Made by a program: the position numbers and the translations under genes. DNA of 64,000 nucleotides, taken from positions 27,178-91,177 of the forward strand of contig CAWBMN010000007.1 of assembly GCA_963789945.1 (NCBI GenBank), written 5' to 3'. A model generated the notes under the pieces. That model was not told the origin of the DNA. It made no database searches and worked only from the letters and a program-made list of their open reading frames with translations. This DNA comes from an uncultured beta proteobacterium (lineage in GTDB: Bacteria > Pseudomonadota > Gammaproteobacteria > Burkholderiales > JACQAP01). Every line of letters starts with the position of its first letter. Positions within the stretch are counted from its first letter, which is position 1. This document shows, in pieces, positions 3,538 through 58,205 of the stretch.

Positions 3538-3539
3538 TC

Positions 3540-3636
3540 GGGATTGGGGACTGAGGATCGGGGACTGAGGTTTGGGAATTGAAGATTGGGCCAGGGCTCT
3601 AGAGCTCCTGGATCTCAATCCCCAATCCTCAATCCC
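3540..3636. repeat. IR1: heptad-periodic inverted repeat between ppiB and lpxH
   Basis: Left arm has 7 tandem heptamers: GGATTGG GGACTGA GGATCGG GGACTGA GGTTTGG GAATTGA AGATTGG. Right arm is TCAATCC CCAATCC TCAATCC, the complement of GGATTGR. The centre CCAGGGCTCTAGAGCTCCTGG is itself palindromic. Confidence 0.7.
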
Positions 3637-3639
3637 GTT

Positions 3640-9679: not shown

Positions 9680-9730
9680 TCAGTTCCTTGTTGGCAGGGT
9701 CGTCGCTTTATTTTTTTCCAGACGACGCAA

Positions 9731-9778
9731 GGGGTGAGCCGGAAATCCGCCTCACCCCTCACGCCTTACGCCTTACCT
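9731..9778. repeat. IR2: hairpin plus heptad tract between dnaK and dnaJ
   Basis: GGGGTGAG - 12-nt loop - CTCACCCC (perfect 8-bp stem), followed by CCTCACC CCTCACG CCTTACG CCTTACC. In the dnaK sense this reads GGTAAGG CGTAAGG CGTGAGG GGTGAGG ... CTCACCCC. Confidence 0.55.
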
Positions 9779-9780
9779 TA

Positions 9781-14268: not shown

Positions 14269-14269
14269 A

Positions 14270-14380
14270 GGGTTGAGGGGTGCGGGGGCGAGGGGTGAGG
14301 GGTGAGGCGAGAGGCGTCAGGTTGCGCGAGTACCGCGCGTAATGCCCCAAAGTTTTAGCTCGGGCATCCTGCCTCTACCA
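14270..14380. repeat. IR3: G-rich heptad tract (G-quadruplex motif on the + strand) with a weak complementary arm, between hrcA and hemH
   Basis: GGTTGAG GGGTGCG GGGGCGA GGGGTGA GGGGTGA GGCGAGA GGCGTCA (14271-14319). G-runs at 14277-80, 14284-88, 14292-95 and 14299-302. Partial partner CATCCTGCCTCTACC at 14365-14379. Confidence 0.6.
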
Positions 14381-35361: not shown

Positions 35362-35507
35362 CCGTGAGGGGTCAGGAGAGAGGGGTGAGGGGTCGAATCC
35401 TCACCCTTTTCGTTTCTTGAATTCGCGGTTGAACGTTGAGAATCTTCGCAACTTGGCCAGCGGGAACGTGATGGCACATCCTCACTCCTCACCCCTCACC
35501 CCTCGCG
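35362..35507. repeat. IR6: GGGGTGA-type inverted repeat spanning the ftsH-folP junction
   Basis: 5' arm CGTGAGGGGTCAGGAGAGAGGGGTGAGGGG (35363-35392). 3' arm CCTCACTCCTCACCCCTCACCCCTCGCG (35480-35507), which lies inside the first codons of folP. Confidence 0.65.
35382..35415 (+). terminator. intrinsic terminator-like hairpin after ftsH, formed from part of the IR6 5' arm
   Basis: GGGTGAGG (35383-35390) - ggtcgaat - CCTCACCC (35399-35406), followed by TTTTCGTTTCTT. Confidence 0.55.
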
Positions 35508-36346
35508 CCGTTCTGCAGCTTGGCCGCTTCTCGCTGAGGCTGGAGCACCCGCTGATCATGGGGGTGGTGAACGTCACGCCGGATTCGTTTTCCGATGGTG
35601 GTCGTTTCTTCGGTACGCAGCAGGCACTGGAACACGCGCGGGTCCTGATCGAGGAAGGCGCCGACATTCTCGACATCGGCGGGGAGTCCTCGCGGCCGGG
35701 TGCGGAGCCGGTGGGCCTCGACGAGGAATTGCGGCGGGTGATGCCGGTGCTGGAACAACTCGCGCCAGGTCCGGTACCGGTATCGGTCGACACCTGCAAG
35801 CCGGAGGTAATGCGCCACGCGATAGCGGCCGGGGCGGCGATGGTGAACGATATCAACGCGTTGCGCGAACCGGGGGCGCTCGAGGCGGTGGCGCAAAGTC
35901 AGGCTGCGGTGTGCCTGATGCACATGCAGGGTGAGCCGCGCTCGATGCAGCGCGACCCGAAATATGAAGACGTGGTGGCAGAGGTTACGATGTTTCTCGC
36001 GCAACGCGTTGACGCTGCGCAGCAGGCGGGTATTGCACGCGAGCGCATCGTCATCGACCCCGGCTTCGGCTTCGGCAAGAATACCGCTCACAACCTCGGA
36101 CTGCTGAGGGGCCTGCACAAAATTGCCGGTCTCGGACAGCCGGTGCTGGTCGGACTGTCGCGCAAATCGCTATTCGGTAAAATCACCGGCAAACCGGTAG
36201 CGGACCGTGTTTCCGCGAGCGTGGCCGCGGCGCTGCTTGCGGTCGAGCGCGGCGCCGCACTGGTTCGCGTGCACGACGTGGCGGCGACCCGCGATGCGCT
36301 GCTGGTGCTCAACGCAATCGAAGGACATTCCCTTGCCAAAAGCTAG
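35471..36346 (+). CDS. folP: dihydropteroate synthase
   Basis: [27 protein letters not shown] and ALVRVHDV. The start is ambiguous (ATG 35471, or TTG 35417 in the ORF track). Confidence 0.9.
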
Positions 36347-42983: not shown

Positions 42984-42985
42984 CG

Positions 42986-43072
42986 GTGCTGAGTGCCCGG
43001 TACTGTGTGCTGCGAACAAATGGCATCAGGCCCGGGACTTCAGCACACAGCACTCAGTACTCAGTACTGAGT
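42986..43072. repeat. IR7: heptad-periodic inverted repeat between secG and tRNA-Leu
   Basis: Left arm GCTGAGT GCCCGGT ACTGTGT GCTG. Right arm CAGCACA CAGCACT CAGTACT CAGTACT GAGT. The inner 12 bp pair with one mismatch. Confidence 0.65.
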
Positions 43073-43076
43073 TTGC

Positions 43077-44780: not shown

Positions 44781-44834
44781 AGGTAATGACTCAGCACAAT
44801 TTTCCCATGAATTTTAGCTCCGGCCGCCCTGCGG

Positions 44835-44859
44835 GCTTAACTTGCCAGGGCAAGTTAGC
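44835..44859 (+). other. hairpin inside the unusually long nuoC-nuoD spacer
   Basis: TAACTTGCC (44838-44846) - ag - GGCAAGTTA (44849-44857), extendable to GC...GC with one bulge. Confidence 0.5.
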
Positions 44860-44932
44860 CTGCACTGAAGTTCATCGTGTAACGCCGATGGTCTTCGATT
44901 TCCCGCTCATGGTGTCACTACCAATTTGAGCT

Positions 44933-51435: not shown

Positions 51436-51927
51436 ATGATCGAGCGCATTCGCGACTTTTTCCGCACCTTTCTGCTCTTCGAGCTTGTGAAGGGCCTGAT
51501 GCTCACCGGCCGCTACTTCTTCGCGCGCAAGATCACGGTGCAGTTTCCGGAGGAAAAGACGCCCCAGTCGGGGCGCTTCCGCGGCCTGCATGCGCTGCGC
51601 CGCTATCCCAACGGCGAGGAACGCTGCATTGCCTGCAAGCTGTGTGAAGCGGTATGCCCGGCGCTGGCAATCACCATCGAATCCGAGCAGCGTGCCGACG
51701 GTACCCGCCGCACCACGCGCTACGACATCGACCTCACCAAGTGCATTTTCTGCGGATTCTGCGAGGAGTCCTGTCCGGTGGACTCGATCGTCGAGACCCG
51801 CATCCTCGAATACCACGGGGAAAAGCGCGGAGACCTGCTGTACACCAAGGAGATGCTGCTGGCGATCGGCGACCGCTACGAAGACCAGATCGCCAGGGAC
51901 CGCGCCGAGGATGCAGCGTACCGATGA
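51436..51927 (+). CDS. nuoI: NADH-quinone oxidoreductase subunit I
   Basis: 163 aa with two 4Fe-4S motifs, [12 protein letters not shown] and [12 protein letters not shown]. Confidence 0.95.
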
Positions 51928-51935
51928 GGCGAGAA

Positions 51936-51987
51936 GCGTGAGGGGTGAGGAGTGAGGGGAAGACCCCTTACTCCTCAATCCTTACCA
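51936..51987. repeat. IR9: tight GTGAGGR-type hairpin between nuoI and nuoJ
   Basis: GAGGAGTGAGGGG (51947-51959) - AAGA - CCCCTTACTCCTC (51964-51976) gives 13 bp: 12 Watson-Crick plus 1 G:T. Flanked by further units (GCGTGAGGGGT... / ...AATCCTTACC). Confidence 0.8.
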
Positions 51988-51995
51988 ACAAGAAC

Positions 51996-52766
51996 ATGGA
52001 TTTCAAGACCGGCGTCTTTTATTTCTTCGCGGCCATGCTGGTGTTCGCCGCGCTGCGCGTCATTACCGCGCGCAATCCGGTGCATTCTGCCCTTTTCCTG
52101 GTGCTGGCGTTCTTTACCGCCGCGGCGCTGTGGGTGCTGCTCGAGGCCGAGTTTCTCGCCATCGCGCTGGTGCTGGTCTACGTCGGTGCGGTGATGGTGC
52201 TGTTCCTGTTCGTGGTGATGATGCTCGACATCAACCTCGACCGATTGCGCGAGGGCTACTGGGACTACCTGGTGCCGGCGCTGATCGTGGCGGGCGTGAT
52301 GGTGGCGGAAATGGCGATCATCCTCGGCGCCCGCTACTTTGACCTCGAGGGCATGCCGGCGCCCGAGCCCAGGGGCGGGGACTACAGCAACACACGCGAG
52401 CTCGGCCTCCTGATCTATACCGACTACGTCTATCCGTTCGAGATCGCCGCGGTGATCCTGCTGGTGGCGATCGTCGCCGCCATCGCCCTGACGCTGCGCC
52501 ATCGCAAGGACACCAAGTACATCGACGCTGCGAAGCAGATCAACATCCACCGCAAGGACCGCGTGCGGTTGGTGTCGATGCCGTCGGAAAGCAAGGATGA
52601 AGGCAGGATGAAGGATGAAGGCGGAAGAAAAATTCAAACGTGGGGAAGCGCGGTAGTGCACGCGGAAAGCCAGGCATCGGATTGTTCCGGCCTCTGTGGT
52701 TCGGCGTTTCACTTCATCCTTCATCCTTCATCCTTCATCCTTTCGACGCCCGGAGGGCGGCGATGA
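51996..52766 (+). CDS. nuoJ: NADH-quinone oxidoreductase subunit J, carrying an about 57-codon C-terminal extension that reads through repeat IR10
   Basis: Start at ATG 51996 ([15 protein letters not shown]...). Conserved core to about ...[11 protein letters not shown]. The frame then stays open through IR10 to TGA 52764-52766, which overlaps the nuoK ATG (ATGA). Confidence 0.85.
52593..52742. repeat. IR10: GGATGAA-type inverted repeat inside the 3' end of the nuoJ ORF
   Basis: Left arm AAGGATGAAGGCAGGATGAAGGATGAAGGCGG. Right arm CACTTCATCCTTCATCCTTCATCCTTCATCCTT. The 85-nt spacer contains a solo CTCTGTGGTT (52692-52701) of the IR4/IR5 family. Confidence 0.8.
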
Positions 52767-53068
52767 TCTCCCTCTCCCACTACCTCATTCTTGGCGCCGT
52801 GCTGTTCGCGATCAGCGTGGTGGGCATCTTTTTGAACCGCAAGAACGTGATCATCCTGCTGATGGCGATCGAGCTGATGCTGCTGGCGGTGAACATGAAT
52901 TTCGTCGCCTTTTCGCATTTCCTGCAGGACAGCGCCGGTCAGGTATTCGTGTTTTTCATCCTCACCGTGGCGGCGGCCGAGTCGGCAATCGGTCTGGCGA
53001 TCCTGGTGGTGCTGTTCCGCAATGTTCGCACCATCAACGTCGACGATCTGGACAAGTTGAAAGGATGA
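52763..53068 (+). CDS. nuoK: NADH-quinone oxidoreductase subunit K
   Basis: Start at ATG 52763 with GGAGGG 6 nt upstream. 101 aa, 3 [14 protein letters not shown]...[14 protein letters not shown]. Confidence 0.93.
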
Positions 53069-53071
53069 AAA

Positions 53072-53155
53072 GCGTGAGGAGAGAGGAGTTAGCGGTGAGG
53101 AAAGCAAAACCTGGGGTGAGTTTGCCCCTCACCCCTCACTCCTTACCCCTTACGC
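53072..53155. repeat. IR11: GTGAGGA/GGGGTGA-type inverted repeat between nuoK and nuoL
   Basis: GCGTGAGGAGAGAGGAGTTAGCGGTGAGG ... GGGGTGAG-tttgccc-CTCACCCC TCACTCCTTACCCCTTACGC. The inner 8-bp stem is perfect; the outer arms are imperfect. Confidence 0.65.
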
Positions 53156-53165
53156 ACTTGGATCC

Positions 53166-55127
53166 ATGAAAAGCCTCTACCTCATCGTCCCTCTCGCCCC
53201 GCTTGCCGGCGCGCTGATTGCCGGCCTGCTGGGCTGGCTGATCGGCCGTCGTGCCACGCACTGGGTGGCGATCACCGGCATGACGGTGTCAACCATCGCA
53301 GCCTTTCTGGTGTTTCGCGACGTGCTCGCCGGCAACACGTTCGACGAACCGATCTATACCTGGATCACCACCGGTGACATTTCGCTGGAAATCGGATTCC
53401 TGATCGACCGATTGTCGGCCACCATGATGCTGGTCGTAACTTTCGTCTCGCTGATGGTGCACATCTACACCATTGGCTACATGGCGGACGATCCCGGCTA
53501 CCAGCGCTTCTTTTCCTACATTTCCCTCTTCACCTTCTCGATGCTTATGCTGGTGATGAGCAACAATTTCCTGCAGCTGTTCTTCGGCTGGGAAGCGGTG
53601 GGCCTGGTTTCCTATCTGCTGATCGGCTTCTGGTACGCGCGCCCGAGCGCGATCTATGCCAGCCTCAAGGCCTTCCTGGTCAATCGCGTCGGAGATTTGG
53701 GTTTTCTGCTTGGGATCGCACTGATTTTCGTGTTCTGCGGTTCGCTGGAATACGCGCAGGTTTTCTCCCGCGCGCCGGAGCTGACCGGCGAGACGGTGGA
53801 AATGGCCTACGTCGGCTGGCCGCTGCTTACCACCATCTGCATCCTGCTGTTCATCGGCGCGATGGGAAAATCGGCGCAGTTTCCGCTGCACGTCTGGCTG
53901 CCGGACTCGATGGAGGGCCCGACGCCGATCTCGGCACTGATTCATGCCGCCACCATGGTAACCGCGGGCATTTTCATGGTGGCGCGCATGTCGCCGCTGT
54001 TCGAGTTGTCGGAAACGGCGCTGTCGTTCGTGATGGTGATCGGCGCAATCACCGCATTGTTCATGGCGCTGGTGGCAGTGGTGCAGAACGATATCAAGCG
54101 GGTGGTGGCCTATTCGACGCTGTCGCAACTCGGTTACATGACCGTGGCGCTCGGCGCCTCGGCCTACGCCGGGGCCATATTTCACCTGGTCACCCACGCC
54201 TTTTTCAAGGCGCTGTTGTTCCTCGGCGCCGGCTCGGTGATCATCGCCCTGCACCACGAGCAGGACATGCGCAGGATGGGCGGTTTGAGGAAGTACATGC
54301 CGATCACCTACGCCACCATGCTCATCGGTGCTGTGGCAAGCGCGGGCATTCCCGGTTTCTCCGGTTTCTTTTCCAAGGACGCGATCATCGAGGCCGTGCA
54401 TCTGTCGCAATTGCCGGGCAGCGGTTTTGCCCACTTCTGTGTGCTGTCATGCGTGTTCGTCACAGCGTTCTATACCTTCCGGCTGTTTTTCATGACTTTC
54501 CACGGCAAGGAGCGTTTCGAAGTTCACGCTGGCGATCACGGACACGCGCAGGGCCACGTACCCCACGAGTCCCCCTGGGTGGTCACCGTGCCGCTGGTGG
54601 TCCTGGCGGTGCCGACGATCTGTGCCGGGTGGGTGATCGGGACGGTGCTGTTCGGCGGCTTCTTCGGCGATGCCATCGTGGTTGCCAGATCACACGACGT
54701 GCTCGCGCAGCTGGGCGGGGATTTTCACGGCGTGATGGCGATGATGGCGCACGCGCTGGCCACCTGGCCGTTGTGGCTTGCGGTTGCCGGCATTGCCGGC
54801 GCGGCCTGGTTGTATCTCAGGCCCACCGACCTGCCGGACAAGTTTCGGCAGTGGTTCTCGCCGCTCTATACGCTTCTCGAGCAGAAGTACTATTTCGACC
54901 GTTTCAACGACTGGTTCTTTGCAGGCGGTGCGCGCCTGGTCGGGCGCGGGTTGTGGAAAGGCGGCGATGTCGCTGTGATCGACGGCTTCGTCAACGGTGC
55001 CGCAACGCTGGTCGGCTGGCTGGCGACTGTCGTGCGCAAACTCCAATCCGGATATGTCTATACCTACGCCTTCGCCATGATCATTGGCATGGTGACCCTG
55101 CTTACGCTCTGGTTTGCCCGAAGCTGA
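53166..55127 (+). CDS. nuoL: NADH-quinone oxidoreductase subunit L
   Basis: 653 aa polytopic antiporter-like subunit. WEAVGLVSYLLIGFW...GKSAQFPLHVWLPDSMEGPTP. Confidence 0.96.
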   Translation: MKSLYLIVPLAPLAGALIAGLLGWLIGRRATHWVAITGMTVSTIAAFLVFRDVLAGNTFDEPIYTWITTGDISLEIGFLIDRLSATMMLVVTFVSLMVHIYTIGYMADDPGYQRFFSYISLFTFSMLMLVMSNNFLQLFFGWEAVGLVSYLLIGFWYARPSAIYASLKAFLVNRVGDLGFLLGIALIFVFCGSLEYAQVFSRAPELTGETVEMAYVGWPLLTTICILLFIGAMGKSAQFPLHVWLPDSMEGPTPISALIHAATMVTAGIFMVARMSPLFELSETALSFVMVIGAITALFMALVAVVQNDIKRVVAYSTLSQLGYMTVALGASAYAGAIFHLVTHAFFKALLFLGAGSVIIALHHEQDMRRMGGLRKYMPITYATMLIGAVASAGIPGFSGFFSKDAIIEAVHLSQLPGSGFAHFCVLSCVFVTAFYTFRLFFMTFHGKERFEVHAGDHGHAQGHVPHESPWVVTVPLVVLAVPTICAGWVIGTVLFGGFFGDAIVVARSHDVLAQLGGDFHGVMAMMAHALATWPLWLAVAGIAGAAWLYLRPTDLPDKFRQWFSPLYTLLEQKYYFDRFNDWFFAGGARLVGRGLWKGGDVAVIDGFVNGAATLVGWLATVVRKLQSGYVYTYAFAMIIGMVTLLTLWFARS

Positions 55128-55142
55128 GGACGGGAAGACATC

Positions 55143-56624
55143 ATGTTCGGACTGCCCTACCTGAGCACCGTCATTTGGCTGCCGATCCTTGCCGGCATAG
55201 CGGTGCTTTTCACCGGCTCGGACCGCCATGCCAACGCCGCCCGCTGGCTGGCGCTCGCCGGCGCCGTTGGCGGCCTCGTGGTTGCGCTGCCGCTCTACTC
55301 CGGATTCGACCCCGGCACACCGGGGATGCAGTTCGTGGAGTTGATGCCCTGGATCGAGTCCTACAGTGTCAACTATCACCTCGGTATCGACGGTGTTTCG
55401 CTCCTGATGATCCTGCTCAACTGTTTCACCACCGTGCTGGTGGTGCTGGCGGGATGGCAGGTGGTGCAGAGCCGGGTGGCCCAGTACATGGCAGCCTTCC
55501 TGATCCTTTCCGGGATCATGAACGGTGTGTTCTGCGCGCAGGATGCCGCGCTGTTCTATGTCTTTTTCGAGGCGACGCTGATCCCGATGTTCATCGTCAT
55601 CGGCGTATGGGGAGGGCCGAACCGGGTTTATGCAGCGCTCAAGTTTTTCCTCTACACACTGGTCGGATCGCTGCTGACCCTGATTGCATTCATCTATCTG
55701 TACGTTGCCTCCGAGGGCAGTTTCGCACTGGCCGACTACTACCGCCTGCCGATTCCTCTGGGCACCCAGATCCTGTTGTTCATTGCCTTCTTTGCCGCGT
55801 TTGCGGTCAAGGTGCCGATGTTCCCGGTACATACGTGGTTGCCCGATGCGCATGTCGAGGCACCCACCGGCGGTTCCGTGGTGCTGGCAGCCGTGATGCT
55901 GAAGCTTGGTGCCTACGGTTTCATCCGGCTGTCGCTGCCGATTCTGCCGGATGCCAGCCACGTGGCTGCCCCGGTCGTCATCGGCTTGTCGCTGATCGCG
56001 GTGGTGTATATCGGAGTAGTGGCACTGGTGCAGACCGACATGAAGAAGCTGATCGCCTATTCCTCGATTTCGCACATGGGATTCGTGACGCTGGGCATTT
56101 TCCTGTTCAACGACCACGGCATGGAAGGGGCGGTAATCCAGATGGTCTCGCACGGCTTCGTTTCCGGCGCGCTTTTCCTGTGCGTCGGCGTCCTGTACGA
56201 CCGCATGCACTCGCGTTTGATCGCCGACTACGGCGGGGTGGTGAACCGGATGCCGGTATTTGCCGCCTTCTTCGTTCTGTTCGCGATGGCCAATTCCGGT
56301 TTGCCGGGCACCAGCGGATTTGTCGGCGAGTTCCTGGTGATTCTGGGGACGATGGAGGAGAACTTCTGGTACGCAGTCGCAGCGGCGAGCACGCTGCTGT
56401 TCGGCGCCGCCTATACACTGTGGATGATCAAGCGCGTCGTTTTCGGCCCGGTGGCCAACGGCAAGGTTGCAGCTTTGACAGACATCACGCTGCGCGAGCG
56501 CTTGGTGCTCGGCCTGGTCGCGATCGCGGTGCTGGCGATGGGGCTATATCCCCAGCCGTTCGCCGCGGTGCTGCATACCTCGGTCAACGAACTCCTGACG
56601 CTGGCAAACCAGAGCAAATTATGA
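55143..56624 (+). CDS. nuoM: NADH-quinone oxidoreductase subunit M
   Basis: 493 aa antiporter-like subunit. FAVKVPMFPVHTWLPDAHVEAPT. Confidence 0.96.
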   Translation: MFGLPYLSTVIWLPILAGIAVLFTGSDRHANAARWLALAGAVGGLVVALPLYSGFDPGTPGMQFVELMPWIESYSVNYHLGIDGVSLLMILLNCFTTVLVVLAGWQVVQSRVAQYMAAFLILSGIMNGVFCAQDAALFYVFFEATLIPMFIVIGVWGGPNRVYAALKFFLYTLVGSLLTLIAFIYLYVASEGSFALADYYRLPIPLGTQILLFIAFFAAFAVKVPMFPVHTWLPDAHVEAPTGGSVVLAAVMLKLGAYGFIRLSLPILPDASHVAAPVVIGLSLIAVVYIGVVALVQTDMKKLIAYSSISHMGFVTLGIFLFNDHGMEGAVIQMVSHGFVSGALFLCVGVLYDRMHSRLIADYGGVVNRMPVFAAFFVLFAMANSGLPGTSGFVGEFLVILGTMEENFWYAVAAASTLLFGAAYTLWMIKRVVFGPVANGKVAALTDITLRERLVLGLVAIAVLAMGLYPQPFAAVLHTSVNELLTLANQSKL

Positions 56625-56629
56625 AAACA

Positions 56630-56740
56630 GGGCCGAGGGACGAGGATCGAGGGACGAGGGAAATGCAAAATCGCGCCGTTGCGCTTAGTGCTTGTCCCTC
56701 GATCCTCGTCCCTCGGCCCTCACCCCTCGCCCCACGTCCC
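56630..56740. repeat. IR12: GAGGGAC-type inverted repeat with 26-bp perfect arms between nuoM and nuoN
   Basis: GGGCCGAGGGACGAGGATCGAGGGAC (56630-56655) is the exact reverse complement of 56694-56719. The 38-nt spacer is followed by more C-rich units (CTCACCCCTCGCCCCACGTCCC). Confidence 0.9.
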
Positions 56741-56747
56741 TGAATTT

Positions 56748-58205
56748 ATGGAATACGAGATTCCCGATTTCCTGCTGGCCGCCCCCGAGATCGTCCTGCT
56801 GACAATGGTCTGCGTCATTCTGATCGTGGACCTGTTTCTGTCCGATGCCCGCCGGGTCTGGACCTATGCGCTGAGCCAGTTGTCGCTGATCGGTACCGCG
56901 GTGCTGGTGTTCGTCATGGGCGGGGAGGACGTCGCCTACACGTTCAACGGCATGTTCGTGGACGACCCGATGGCGAACGTGCTCAAGATCGCAGTCTGCC
57001 TGACCGTGGCCGTCATGCTGGCCTACTCGCGCGCCTACGTTGCCGCGCGCGACATGTATCGCGGGGAATTCTTTGTGCTTTCGCTGTTCGCCACGCTAGG
57101 CATGATGGTGATGATTTCGGCGAACCACTTCCTGGTGCTTTACCTGGGGCTGGAGCTGCTGTCGCTGTCCTTGTATGCCATGGTGGCGCTGCCGCGCGAC
57201 GCCGGCAACAGCACCGAGGCGGCGATGAAATACTTCGTGCTGGGCGCGCTGGCCTCGGGCATGCTGCTCTACGGCATGTCGATGATCTACGGCGCCACCG
57301 GTTCGCTGGAGGTCACCGAAGTGGCGCAGCGCATTTTCGACGGCGAGGCCATTCCGACCATCCTGATTTTCGGGCTGGTATTCGTGGTTGCCGGTATCGG
57401 CTTCAAGCTTGGCGCCGTGCCGTTCCACATGTGGGTGCCGGACGTCTATCACGGCGCGCCGACAGCGGTGACGCTGCTGATCGGAACCGCGCCCAAGCTG
57501 GCGGCATTCGCGTTCATCATGCGTCTGCTGGTCGAGGCGCTTGGCATGCAGCAATTGCTGGTCGAGTGGCAGCAGATGCTGGTGCTGCTGGCGGTGGCTT
57601 CGCTCGCCATCGGAAACATCACGGCAATAGCCCAGACCAACCTGAAGCGAATGCTGGCCTATTCGACCATTTCGCACATGGGTTTCCTGCTGCTCGGCAT
57701 CCTCAGCGGCACGGTCGAGGGATTCGGCGCGGCCATGTTCTACACCGTCATTTATGTGCTGATGGCCCTGGGCACTTTTGGCATGATCCTGCTGCTGTCG
57801 CGCCAGGGCTTCGAAGCGGAGAACCTGGATGACTTCAAGGGGCTTAACCAGCGCGACCCTTGGTACGCTTTCATCATGATGCTGCTGATGTTCTCAATGG
57901 CGGGCATCCCGCCCACCATGGGATTTTGGGCCAAGCTGTTCGTACTCCAGGCGGTACTGTCGGTGGGTTACTTGTGGCTCGCGGTGGTGGCTGTGCTGTT
58001 CTCGTTCATCGGCGCGTTTTACTATCTGCGTGTGGTCAAGCTGATGTACTTCGATACGCCGACCGACGCGGCGCCAATCGAGCCGCATGGCGACATCCGG
58101 GTTCTGATGTCCGTAAACGGCCTCGCGGTGCTGGTATTCGGGTTGGCGCCGGCCTCGCTCCTGGCCATATGCGAACGCGCGATACAGCTTTCCCTGTCCC
58201 AGTGA
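56748..58205 (+). CDS. nuoN: NADH-quinone oxidoreductase subunit N
   Basis: Start at ATG 56748 (MEYEIPDF...), 485 aa. [22 protein letters not shown]. The ORF-track start at 56679 would translate IR12. Confidence 0.93.

Follow-up and report, generated by a model that had tools for sequence, protein, structure and literature searches.

Why should an essential respiratory operon carry long, repetitive palindromes between its genes? The question is raised by the nuo operon, which encodes complex I, in a 64-kb stretch of DNA (the window) that forms part of a 414-kb source contig from an uncultured soil betaproteobacterium. Heptad elements, in which a G-rich tandem array of 7-nt units can pair with a C-rich array across a loop, occupy four of the five distal junctions of this 14-gene operon. 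A first-pass annotation had placed these four inverted repeats (IR9 to IR12) at nuoI/J, the nuoJ 3' end, nuoK/L and nuoM/N, and had proposed that they protect upstream mRNA and so set the stoichiometry of the Nuo subunits. All four are indeed found at those places. We conclude that they are members of a dispersed, widespread class and not a nuo-specific device. On balance, we lean toward the view that they are hypermutable heptad palindromes, tolerated because they are looped out of the junction, with any effects on RNA being side consequences.

The four elements were delineated by inverted-repeat search and by folding of the sense-strand RNA against 200 dinucleotide shuffles; all are given on the + strand. 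IR9 has 22-nt arms at 51938–51959 and 51964–51985, the 5' arm reading GTGAGGG, GTGAGGA, GTGAGGG and a last G, the loop AAGA, and the 3' arm CCCTTAC, TCCTCAA, TCCTTAC. Its stem comprises 18 Watson-Crick pairs, three G.U pairs and one mismatch, and, read by eye, the inner 14 pairs (one of them G.U) close the 4-nt loop. IR10 (52593–52742), also detected as a tandem repeat, consists of a 5' array of GGATGAA units (52593–52627), a structured loop of ~80 nt and a 3' array of (CTTCATC)x4 (52707–52742). In IR11 the arms lie at 53072–53100 and 53127–53155, the 5' arm being GCGTGAGG AGAGAGG AGTTAGC GGTGAGG and the 3' arm CCTCACC CCTCACT CCTTACC CCTTACGC. IR12 (56629–56741) has 30-nt arms (56629–56658 and 56691–56720) with AGGGNCG-type units in the 5' arm, a 32-nt loop holding a small GC hairpin, and three unpaired C-rich heptads that reach 56741; by eye, its stem runs through 27 consecutive Watson-Crick pairs, then a G.U, then two more pairs. 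The earlier description of a perfect 26-bp stem in IR12 and a 13-bp stem with a tetraloop in IR9 was thus essentially right, our counts being 27 and 14 pairs.

All four folds are strong, with energies of -38.6, -63.0, -44.7 and -72.5 kcal/mol for IR9, IR10, IR11 and IR12 (z-scores -6.8, -5.2, -5.3 and -8.1), and none of the 200 shuffles matched the native stability in any case. The arms are built of GTGAGGN units in IR9 and IR11, GGATGAA in IR10 and GAGGGAC-type units in IR12, and Tandem Repeats Finder reported period-7 repeats at 51938, 52605/52712, 53125 and 56629/56694. No period other than 7 is enriched in the window: period 7 has 33 qualifying windows, and the other periods in the range 3–12 have 0–3. 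Scans for promoters and terminators found none at the four hairpins on the + strand; their 3' flanks are C-rich or mixed and carry no U-tract, so the hairpins are not intrinsic terminators. Searched against Rfam 15 at the gathering threshold, the whole window gave no match.

Three simple readings of the units themselves were discarded. Mimicry of Shine-Dalgarno (SD) and anti-SD sequences by the GTGAGG/CCTCAC arms was dropped, as the GGGAAAC, GTGCTGC, GTGACAA and TTAGTCG units of relatives are unlike an SD. Provision of TGA in all three frames fits GTGAGGN, GGATGAA and GTGACNN and fails for GAGGGAC, GGGAAAC and GGGAATC. A resemblance of AAGGATG to a CsrA site was not general.

Five further heptad elements lie within the same 64 kb, all outside the nuo genes. 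Two are hairpins on the - strand: one with GGGATTG/GGGACTG units at the ppiB-lpxH junction (3539–3637; tandem repeat and fold), and one with GTAAGGC/GTGAGGG units (about 9726–9780; period-7 scan and fold) between genes that we read from the sequence as dnaK and dnaJ, where it starts directly past the stop of a 645-residue open reading frame (ORF) and upstream of a DnaJ-like ORF. On the + strand, a hairpin with GTGAGGG/CCTCACC arms and a 96-nt loop sits directly 3' of ftsH (35364–35510; tandem repeat and fold), and another, with GGTGCTG/GTACTGT units and a fold energy of -46.3 kcal/mol, occupies the secG-tRNA-Leu(gag) junction, a short way upstream of nuoA (42984–43073). The fifth is a one-armed array at the hrcA-hemH junction (14269–14321; transcribed strand -). 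The nine window elements use at least five different units, and by eye they share no common termini. The secG-tRNA-Leu units closely resemble those of the K/L hairpin in two relatives at 81–85% identity (L001 and L093), which places one unit family at different loci in different genomes. The hrcA-hemH array reads AGGGGTG/GAGGGGT on the + strand, which makes the transcribed strand C-rich, and its end coincides with the hemH start codon; it has no complementary arm nearby and carries a strong G-quadruplex (G4) motif on the + strand.

Heptad hairpins with other units also occupy nuo junctions in related loci, among them L001, L002, L005 (Hydrogenophilus), L016, L017/L026 (Gallionella), L022 and L056 (Thiobacillus). 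The Hydrogenophilus metagenome-assembled genome (MAG) has GGGAAAC-unit hairpins at both I/J and K/L, and further carriers are several unclassified Burkholderiales. In the related loci examined, 1.7 Mb in all, tandem arrays of period 7 outnumber those of any other period (38, compared with 14 of period 6 and 8 of period 9). We then classified 647 non-redundant nuo junctions from about 160 related loci: overlaps make up 87 of them and spacers under 45 nt another 386, and of the longer ones 77 fold strongly and 97 do not. The first-pass annotation had regarded the hairpins as punctuating a normally compact operon, a premise that does not hold in this clade, where 174 of the 647 junctions are at least 45 nt long. 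Hairpins are commonest at I/J (24%), followed by J/K (11%), L/M (10%), K/L (8%) and M/N (5%).

The elements are also strikingly variable among close relatives. The exact NuoK sequence of the window retrieved ten metagenome contigs, mostly at 94–98% DNA identity, and a member of the NuoN cluster led to four more at ~98% identity (L171–L174). Among these same-population strains the elements form hypervariable islands, only 53–70% identical, within coding sequence that is 95–100% identical right up to the element. Units differ from allele to allele, with GTGAGGN at K/L in the window versus GTGACNN in L084/L085, and GGATGAA at J/K versus AGGATTG/CAATCCC in L082/L087; in L087 the I/J element is also 72 nt longer. 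IR12 is kept in L171–L174, and part of its 3' arm has been lost in L091, whose NuoM is 98% identical. At greater distance, L093 and L001 have an empty M/N site (TAAAATG; in L093, CTCTAAAATGG) and a plain GTGA-overlap J/K junction. L094, which is as distant as L093, has an IR12 homolog in which every unit in both arms has changed from AGGGACG/CGTCCCT to AGGCACG/CGTGCCT, and its M/N hairpin folds at -84 kcal/mol. The architecture thus persists, sequence turnover is concerted and compensated, and elements are gained or lost between sister lineages with NuoM proteins about 85% identical.

We propose that IR9–IR12 belong to a class of heptanucleotide-repeat palindromes found genome-wide, which corresponds in Betaproteobacteria to the convergent GGGAATC arrays known from Xanthomonas, and that both their origin and their change most likely take place at the DNA level. 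Replication slippage would expand, contract and homogenize the 7-nt units, and intrastrand template switching between the arms (the quasipalindrome correction established in E. coli genetics) would copy changes from one arm to the other. Acting together, these processes would allow a hairpin to persist while its sequence changes fast. The elements accumulate between co-directional genes, with the stem a few bases past the upstream stop. An element in this position loops out and leaves a spacer of normal length, which would make it tolerable even where, as in this operon, products must be equimolar.

An NCBIfam profile search identified the flanking genes, all on the + strand, as nuoI (51436–51927; NF004538, E = 3e-94), nuoJ (51996–52766 as assembled), nuoK (52763–53068; NF004321), nuoL (53166–55127), nuoM (55143–56624) and nuoN (56748–58205; NF004442, profile positions 2–482). 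The distal spacers measure 68 nt at I/J, 97 at K/L, 15 at L/M and 123 at M/N, and J/K is an ATGA overlap. The three intergenic hairpins account for about 224–245 of the 303 non-coding bases in this distal half, so that most of it is filled, roughly three quarters to four fifths, and not nearly all as first suggested. In the proximal half, spacers are 34 nt at A/B, 11 at B/C and 13 at F/G, with ATGA overlaps at D/E and E/F; by homology with L081, we infer another at G/H and a 10-nt spacer at H/I. These values bear out the earlier statement that the remaining junctions are ATGA overlaps or 10–34 nt.

The stems of IR9, IR11 and IR12 begin 3–10 nt past the stops of nuoI, nuoK and nuoM, and the IR10 array overlaps the end of nuoJ. 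Hairpin junctions in general follow the same geometry, with the stem starting a median of 3–4 nt past the stop and ending 15–18 nt ahead of the next start. What remains unpaired has a median of 12–13 nt, compared with a median of 14 nt in ordinary short junctions; with the hairpin looped out, the junction thus keeps a normal effective length.

A structure selected in mRNA would tolerate transitions as G.U pairs on the sense strand, and selection on the transcript should therefore be visible as better folding of that strand. Across 19 non-redundant nuo heptad hairpins, no sense-fold advantage was found (10 folded better as sense and 9 as antisense; Wilcoxon p = 0.37), with G.U pairs at 63/638 on the sense and 45/599 on the antisense strand. 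Formal covariation among nine close K/L alleles was not above shuffled controls, a result that follows from too little variation. The first-pass annotation had drawn attention to the purine arm lying 5' on the sense strand of all four elements. This polarity is strict, as the G-rich arm comes first in 14/14, 12/12 and 17/18 heptad hairpins from the window and the relatives L001–L170, against a balanced 22 versus 24 in other inverted repeats. The reverse complement of a G-first hairpin is itself G-first, and the antisense folds show the same order, so the polarity belongs to the element and cannot reflect gene orientation.

Several observations weigh against an origin by mutation and tolerance alone. 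Slippage and template switching leave the strict G-first polarity unexplained, which hints at a constraint on transcripts or on element formation. Every one of the ten sister-strain contigs covering I/J, J/K or K/L keeps a hairpin despite heavy turnover. An orthologous IR9 is retained in L093, with NuoM only 85% identical, and selection for an RNA structure, instead of a DNA mechanism that corrects itself, could account for this long retention. Only IR9 has a strong sense bias, folding 10 kcal/mol better on the sense strand by way of its three G.U pairs, and the non-heptad junction hairpins are sense-biased as a group (32 versus 14, p = 0.006). The hairpins may have a real regulatory role.

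The foremost alternative is that selection maintains the hairpins as RNA elements, which shield mRNA upstream of them against 3' exonucleases, serve as RNase III sites, or both, and so tune the abundance of nuo segments and the output of subunits. Once transcribed, stems of 22–30 bp at -39 to -73 kcal/mol should form very stable RNA hairpins and should block 3'-5' exonucleases such as PNPase (polynucleotide phosphorylase) and RNase II. The canonical substrate of RNase III is a stem of at least 20 bp, and phage T7 early mRNA provides a polycistronic precedent. In silico, IR12 (30 bp) and IR9 (22 bp, one mismatch) reach the duplex length of ~20 bp or more, and both would be long enough as RNase III substrates. 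The position of the stems directly past stop codons, the long-term retention at I/J, the presence of hairpins at all sites in all sister strains and the better sense-strand fold of IR9 all suit such a role, and a 15-kb polycistronic mRNA would plausibly gain from internal barriers. The repetitive extragenic palindrome (REP) precedent invoked by the first-pass annotation is real: the malE-malF REP shields upstream mRNA from 3' exonucleases, and protective 3' structures can reshape operon mRNA levels (PMC5927463). The annotation was also correct that these are stable intercistronic hairpins placed as such REP structures are.

Its further claim, that the hairpins set subunit stoichiometry, finds no support. 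Complex I contains one copy of each Nuo subunit, and there is consequently no unequal stoichiometry to set. The elements occur genome-wide rather than at nuo in particular, and as a class they show neither a sense-strand folding bias nor, among the close K/L alleles, significant covariation. A comparison with relatives that lack the elements, which had been put forward as a check, counts against this role as well, since M/N and J/K are empty in the sister lineage L093/L001; in addition, an arm of IR12 has decayed in a 98%-identical strain. We consider selection for mRNA protection or processing possible but doubtful, and RNase blocking is likely a physical consequence of the hairpins, not a selected stoichiometry device.

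Translational coupling is a less probable explanation. Here, the terminating ribosome would melt the lower stem, or the fold would bring stop and start together, enforcing 1:1 synthesis across a long spacer, which would fit an equimolar complex. The stem bases lie 3–10 nt past the stop and 10–27 nt ahead of starts at which we could recognize no SD between hairpin and start codon (51986–51995 for nuoJ, 53156–53165 for nuoL and 56721–56747 for nuoN). The nuoL ATG is 10 nt 3' of its hairpin and the nuoN ATG 27 nt 3' of the paired part of IR12. By comparison, the element-free starts have one, GAGGA in the 15-nt L/M spacer for nuoM and GGAGGG at 52750–52755 for nuoK. With no SD at nuoJ, nuoL and nuoN, coupling to upstream termination is plausible, and the hairpins may occlude these starts until the upstream ribosome terminates; stems 3–4 nt from a stop could also disturb termination, as reported for REPs. 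The unpaired residue, equal in length to a normal short junction, fits this reading too. All four element-bearing stops in the window read ATGA (CGATGA for nuoI, GGATGA for nuoK and TTATGA for nuoM among them), and the ATGA context of upstream TGA stops is enriched at hairpin junctions (13/42 versus 16/163; Fisher p = 0.002). Some relatives' junctions are simple overlaps. This pattern suggests ancestry from overlap-coupled pairs, with many hairpin spacers perhaps derived from former overlap junctions that were opened. On the other hand, relatives with empty sites manage with simple overlaps, so that the hairpin is not needed; the same geometry is equally expected from mere tolerance; and IR10 is simply translated through in this strain. 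We therefore regard coupling as improbable.

A bolder version of this idea would treat heptad palindromes as a distinct, self-renewing kind of operon punctuation with an obligate G-first order. The G-rich arm, being made first, would sequester the C-rich arm as it is transcribed, leaving it unseen by Rho, and the fold would bridge the stop to an SD-less start and, in many Beta- and Gammaproteobacteria, take the place of ATGA overlaps as the means of coupling in long housekeeping operons. We offer this as a speculation with little chance of being correct.

Even less likely is that the elements are mobile, inserting at ATGA overlaps with target duplication in the manner of MITEs (miniature inverted-repeat transposable elements) or REP doublets forming hairpins (REPINs). 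On either side of IR11 stands a perfect direct repeat of 9 nt, ATGAAAAGC (53065–53073 and 53166–53174), which can be lengthened by eye to 17 nt with 13 matching positions, and L054 holds the corresponding empty K/L form, aaaggATGAAGACC; the flanks look like a duplicated ancestral ATGA-overlap nuoK/nuoL junction. By eye, the M/N flanks agree at 7 of 9 positions. Similar vestigial junction copies are present at L132 I/J and L111 K/L. GTGAGGN recurs at IR9, IR11, 35364 and 9747, the GTGCTG family occurs both at secG-tRNA-Leu in the window and at K/L in L001/L093, and sites are polymorphic for presence and absence. Nevertheless, across the 77 hairpin junctions, flanking direct repeats were no commoner than in mismatched controls, and we rejected target-site duplication, the criterion for a MITE, as a general feature; the exact 9-nt repeat is found only at IR11. 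The elements share no terminal sequence or conserved consensus, and alleles at one site resemble in-situ divergence (GGATGAA to AGGATTG) rather than replacement. No transposase or REP-associated tyrosine transposase (RAYT) was identified in the window, though its ORFs were not screened for Y1 transposases.

Finally, the idea put forward for the heptamers of Xanthomonas and Nostoc, that non-B DNA (G4, i-motif or cruciform) acts on replication or on transcription, is very unlikely to account for the elements. In its favor, GGG/GGGG tracts recur at a spacing of 7 nt in IR9, in IR12 and in the arrays at 14269 and 3541, oligonucleotides of this kind adopt G4 in vitro (PMC4692102), and folding is equally good on both strands. 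Against it, GGATGAA, GTGACAA, GTACTGA and the TTAGTCG of relatives should be unable to form G4, the complementary arm competes with G4 in paired elements, and no function has been found for the Xanthomonas arrays either.

How do these palindromes, which we think are hypermutable and tolerated, compare with known repeats? The closest parallel is the G-rich heptamers described by Rehm et al. 2015 (PMC4692102), GGGAATC in Xanthomonas and GGGGA(C/T)T in Nostoc. The Xanthomonas arrays often form convergent pairs able to fold into stem-loops, with 70–75 pairs per genome, and are strongly biased to non-coding DNA between aligned ORFs, with the C-rich side just upstream of the next start; they are transcribed, they vary widely in length and sequence between close relatives, and no function was found for them (PMC4692102). 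The elements described here share the tandem 7-nt units (at least two), the convergent G-rich arrays, the stop-proximal placement and the variation within stable flanks. They differ in having several unit families (GTGAGGN, GGATGAA, GAGGGAC, GGGATTG and GTACTGA) in place of one dominant unit. GGG/GGGG tracts are present in the IR9 and IR12 units and absent from those of IR10 and from the allelic GTGACNN units; with several units lacking G-tracts, G4 formation is unlikely to be general here. Also without counterpart in the Xanthomonas account are the host, the occupation of four junctions of one operon and the read-through into NuoJ. In the literature, we found no account of these elements in Betaproteobacteria beyond a general survey of simple sequence repeats (SSRs).

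Like REPs, bacterial interspersed mosaic elements (BIMEs) and REPINs of Enterobacteria and Pseudomonas, the heptad elements are abundant extragenic palindromes that would form stable RNA hairpins; they lie between co-directional genes, and elements of the REP type between co-directional or convergent ones. REPs lying no more than about 15 nt from a stop codon can reportedly influence how the gene upstream is translated (Liang, Rudd and Deutscher, in 2015). REPs have a genome-wide consensus with a GTAG-type motif, are mobilized by RAYTs and have stems of about 12–15 bp, whereas the elements here have no common consensus, arms with 7-nt periodicity, unit turnover and stems of 22–30 bp. By analogy with protective and RNase III hairpins, stable stems at cistron boundaries could define processed, stabilized mRNA segments; the protective structures of E. 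coli are conserved, mostly intragenic and shown to act (Dar and Sorek 2018, PMC5927463), whereas here only the architecture is conserved.

The 7-nt unit itself recalls the heptanucleotide SSRs, including the short tandemly repeated repetitive (STRR) sequences of heterocystous cyanobacteria, the TAACTGA repeats of Beggiatoaceae and those in the Mrazek 2007 survey. As that survey is summarized in PMC4679880, no class of long SSR is more over-represented than the one with 7-nt units, and the richest genomes include those of Burkholderia and Xanthomonas. The TAACTGA arrays are found immediately ahead of SD-less starts, some of them overlapping upstream ORF ends, and a heptad unit with a stop triplet in it blocks every one of the three reading frames (MacGregor 2015, PMC4679880). 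STRR and TAACTGA arrays are mostly one-armed direct repeats; the elements here are, as a rule, paired and self-complementary. The finding adds a new lineage and a striking operon setting to a known repeat class.

The locus is a natural test of what such repeats do, with four hairpins in one essential, equimolar 14-gene operon and relatives that supply allelic, decayed and empty sites. An effect of the hairpins on mRNA processing or translational coupling would make them a widespread added layer of operon architecture; if they have no such role, they make a good model for the persistence of hypermutable palindromes inside essential operons. Either way, the system bears on why heptad palindromes exist, on the G-first rule and on their persistence despite fast mutation.

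At the 3' end of nuoJ, an element reaches into the reading frame. The family profile covers residues 1–201 of the 256-residue NuoJ ORF, and homology stops at about residue 201 (about 52598); the last 50–55 codons are read-through across the loop and 3' arm of IR10 to the ATGA overlap with nuoK. Placing IR10 at the nuoJ 3' end is thus accurate for this assembly, but sister strains stop within the 5' array: their NuoJ proteins are 201–224 residues long and end at a TGA there (...SEGKDEG*, ...SESKDEV* or ...SEGRDEKQV*). An 11-nt unit in the window array puts that TGA out of frame, so that the ORF runs on to the nuoK overlap. Miscounting of heptads during assembly could also have produced the 256-residue frame, and an exact look-up of this protein found it absent from the collection searched. 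NuoJ ORFs of 243–357 residues that run into or across nuoK are also found in L016, L022, L024, L031, L034, L042, L057, L058 and L075; these are either real read-through from 3'-end elements or frame errors from miscounted repeats. Two unrelated J/K loop types, of about 84 and about 60 nt, exist among strains that are 94–98% identical (window 52590–52770 compared with L171 and L083/L086), which suggests local recombination or very rapid turnover of the loop.

Practical consequences follow for annotation and assembly: the elements can shift annotated gene ends, as for NuoJ here, and break metagenome assemblies. The L081 contig breaks exactly at the nuoM stop (window-equivalent 56624), the edge of IR12, and heptad hairpins appear to fragment short-read assemblies.

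Hairpins of other kinds also occur at nuo junctions. The 152-nt nuoC/D spacer (44781–44932) contains the different hairpin that the first-pass annotation had noted there, GGGCTTAACTTGCC AGG GCAAGTTAGCC, which is not heptad-based. At L017 I/J (in the 2580-upstream region) and L024 M/N, different nuo junctions of Gallionella-related MAGs, we observed near-perfect palindromes of one family, about 28–30 bp long (GTAGGGTGGGCACG...CGTGCCCACCCTAC), that are REP-like and again not built of heptads.

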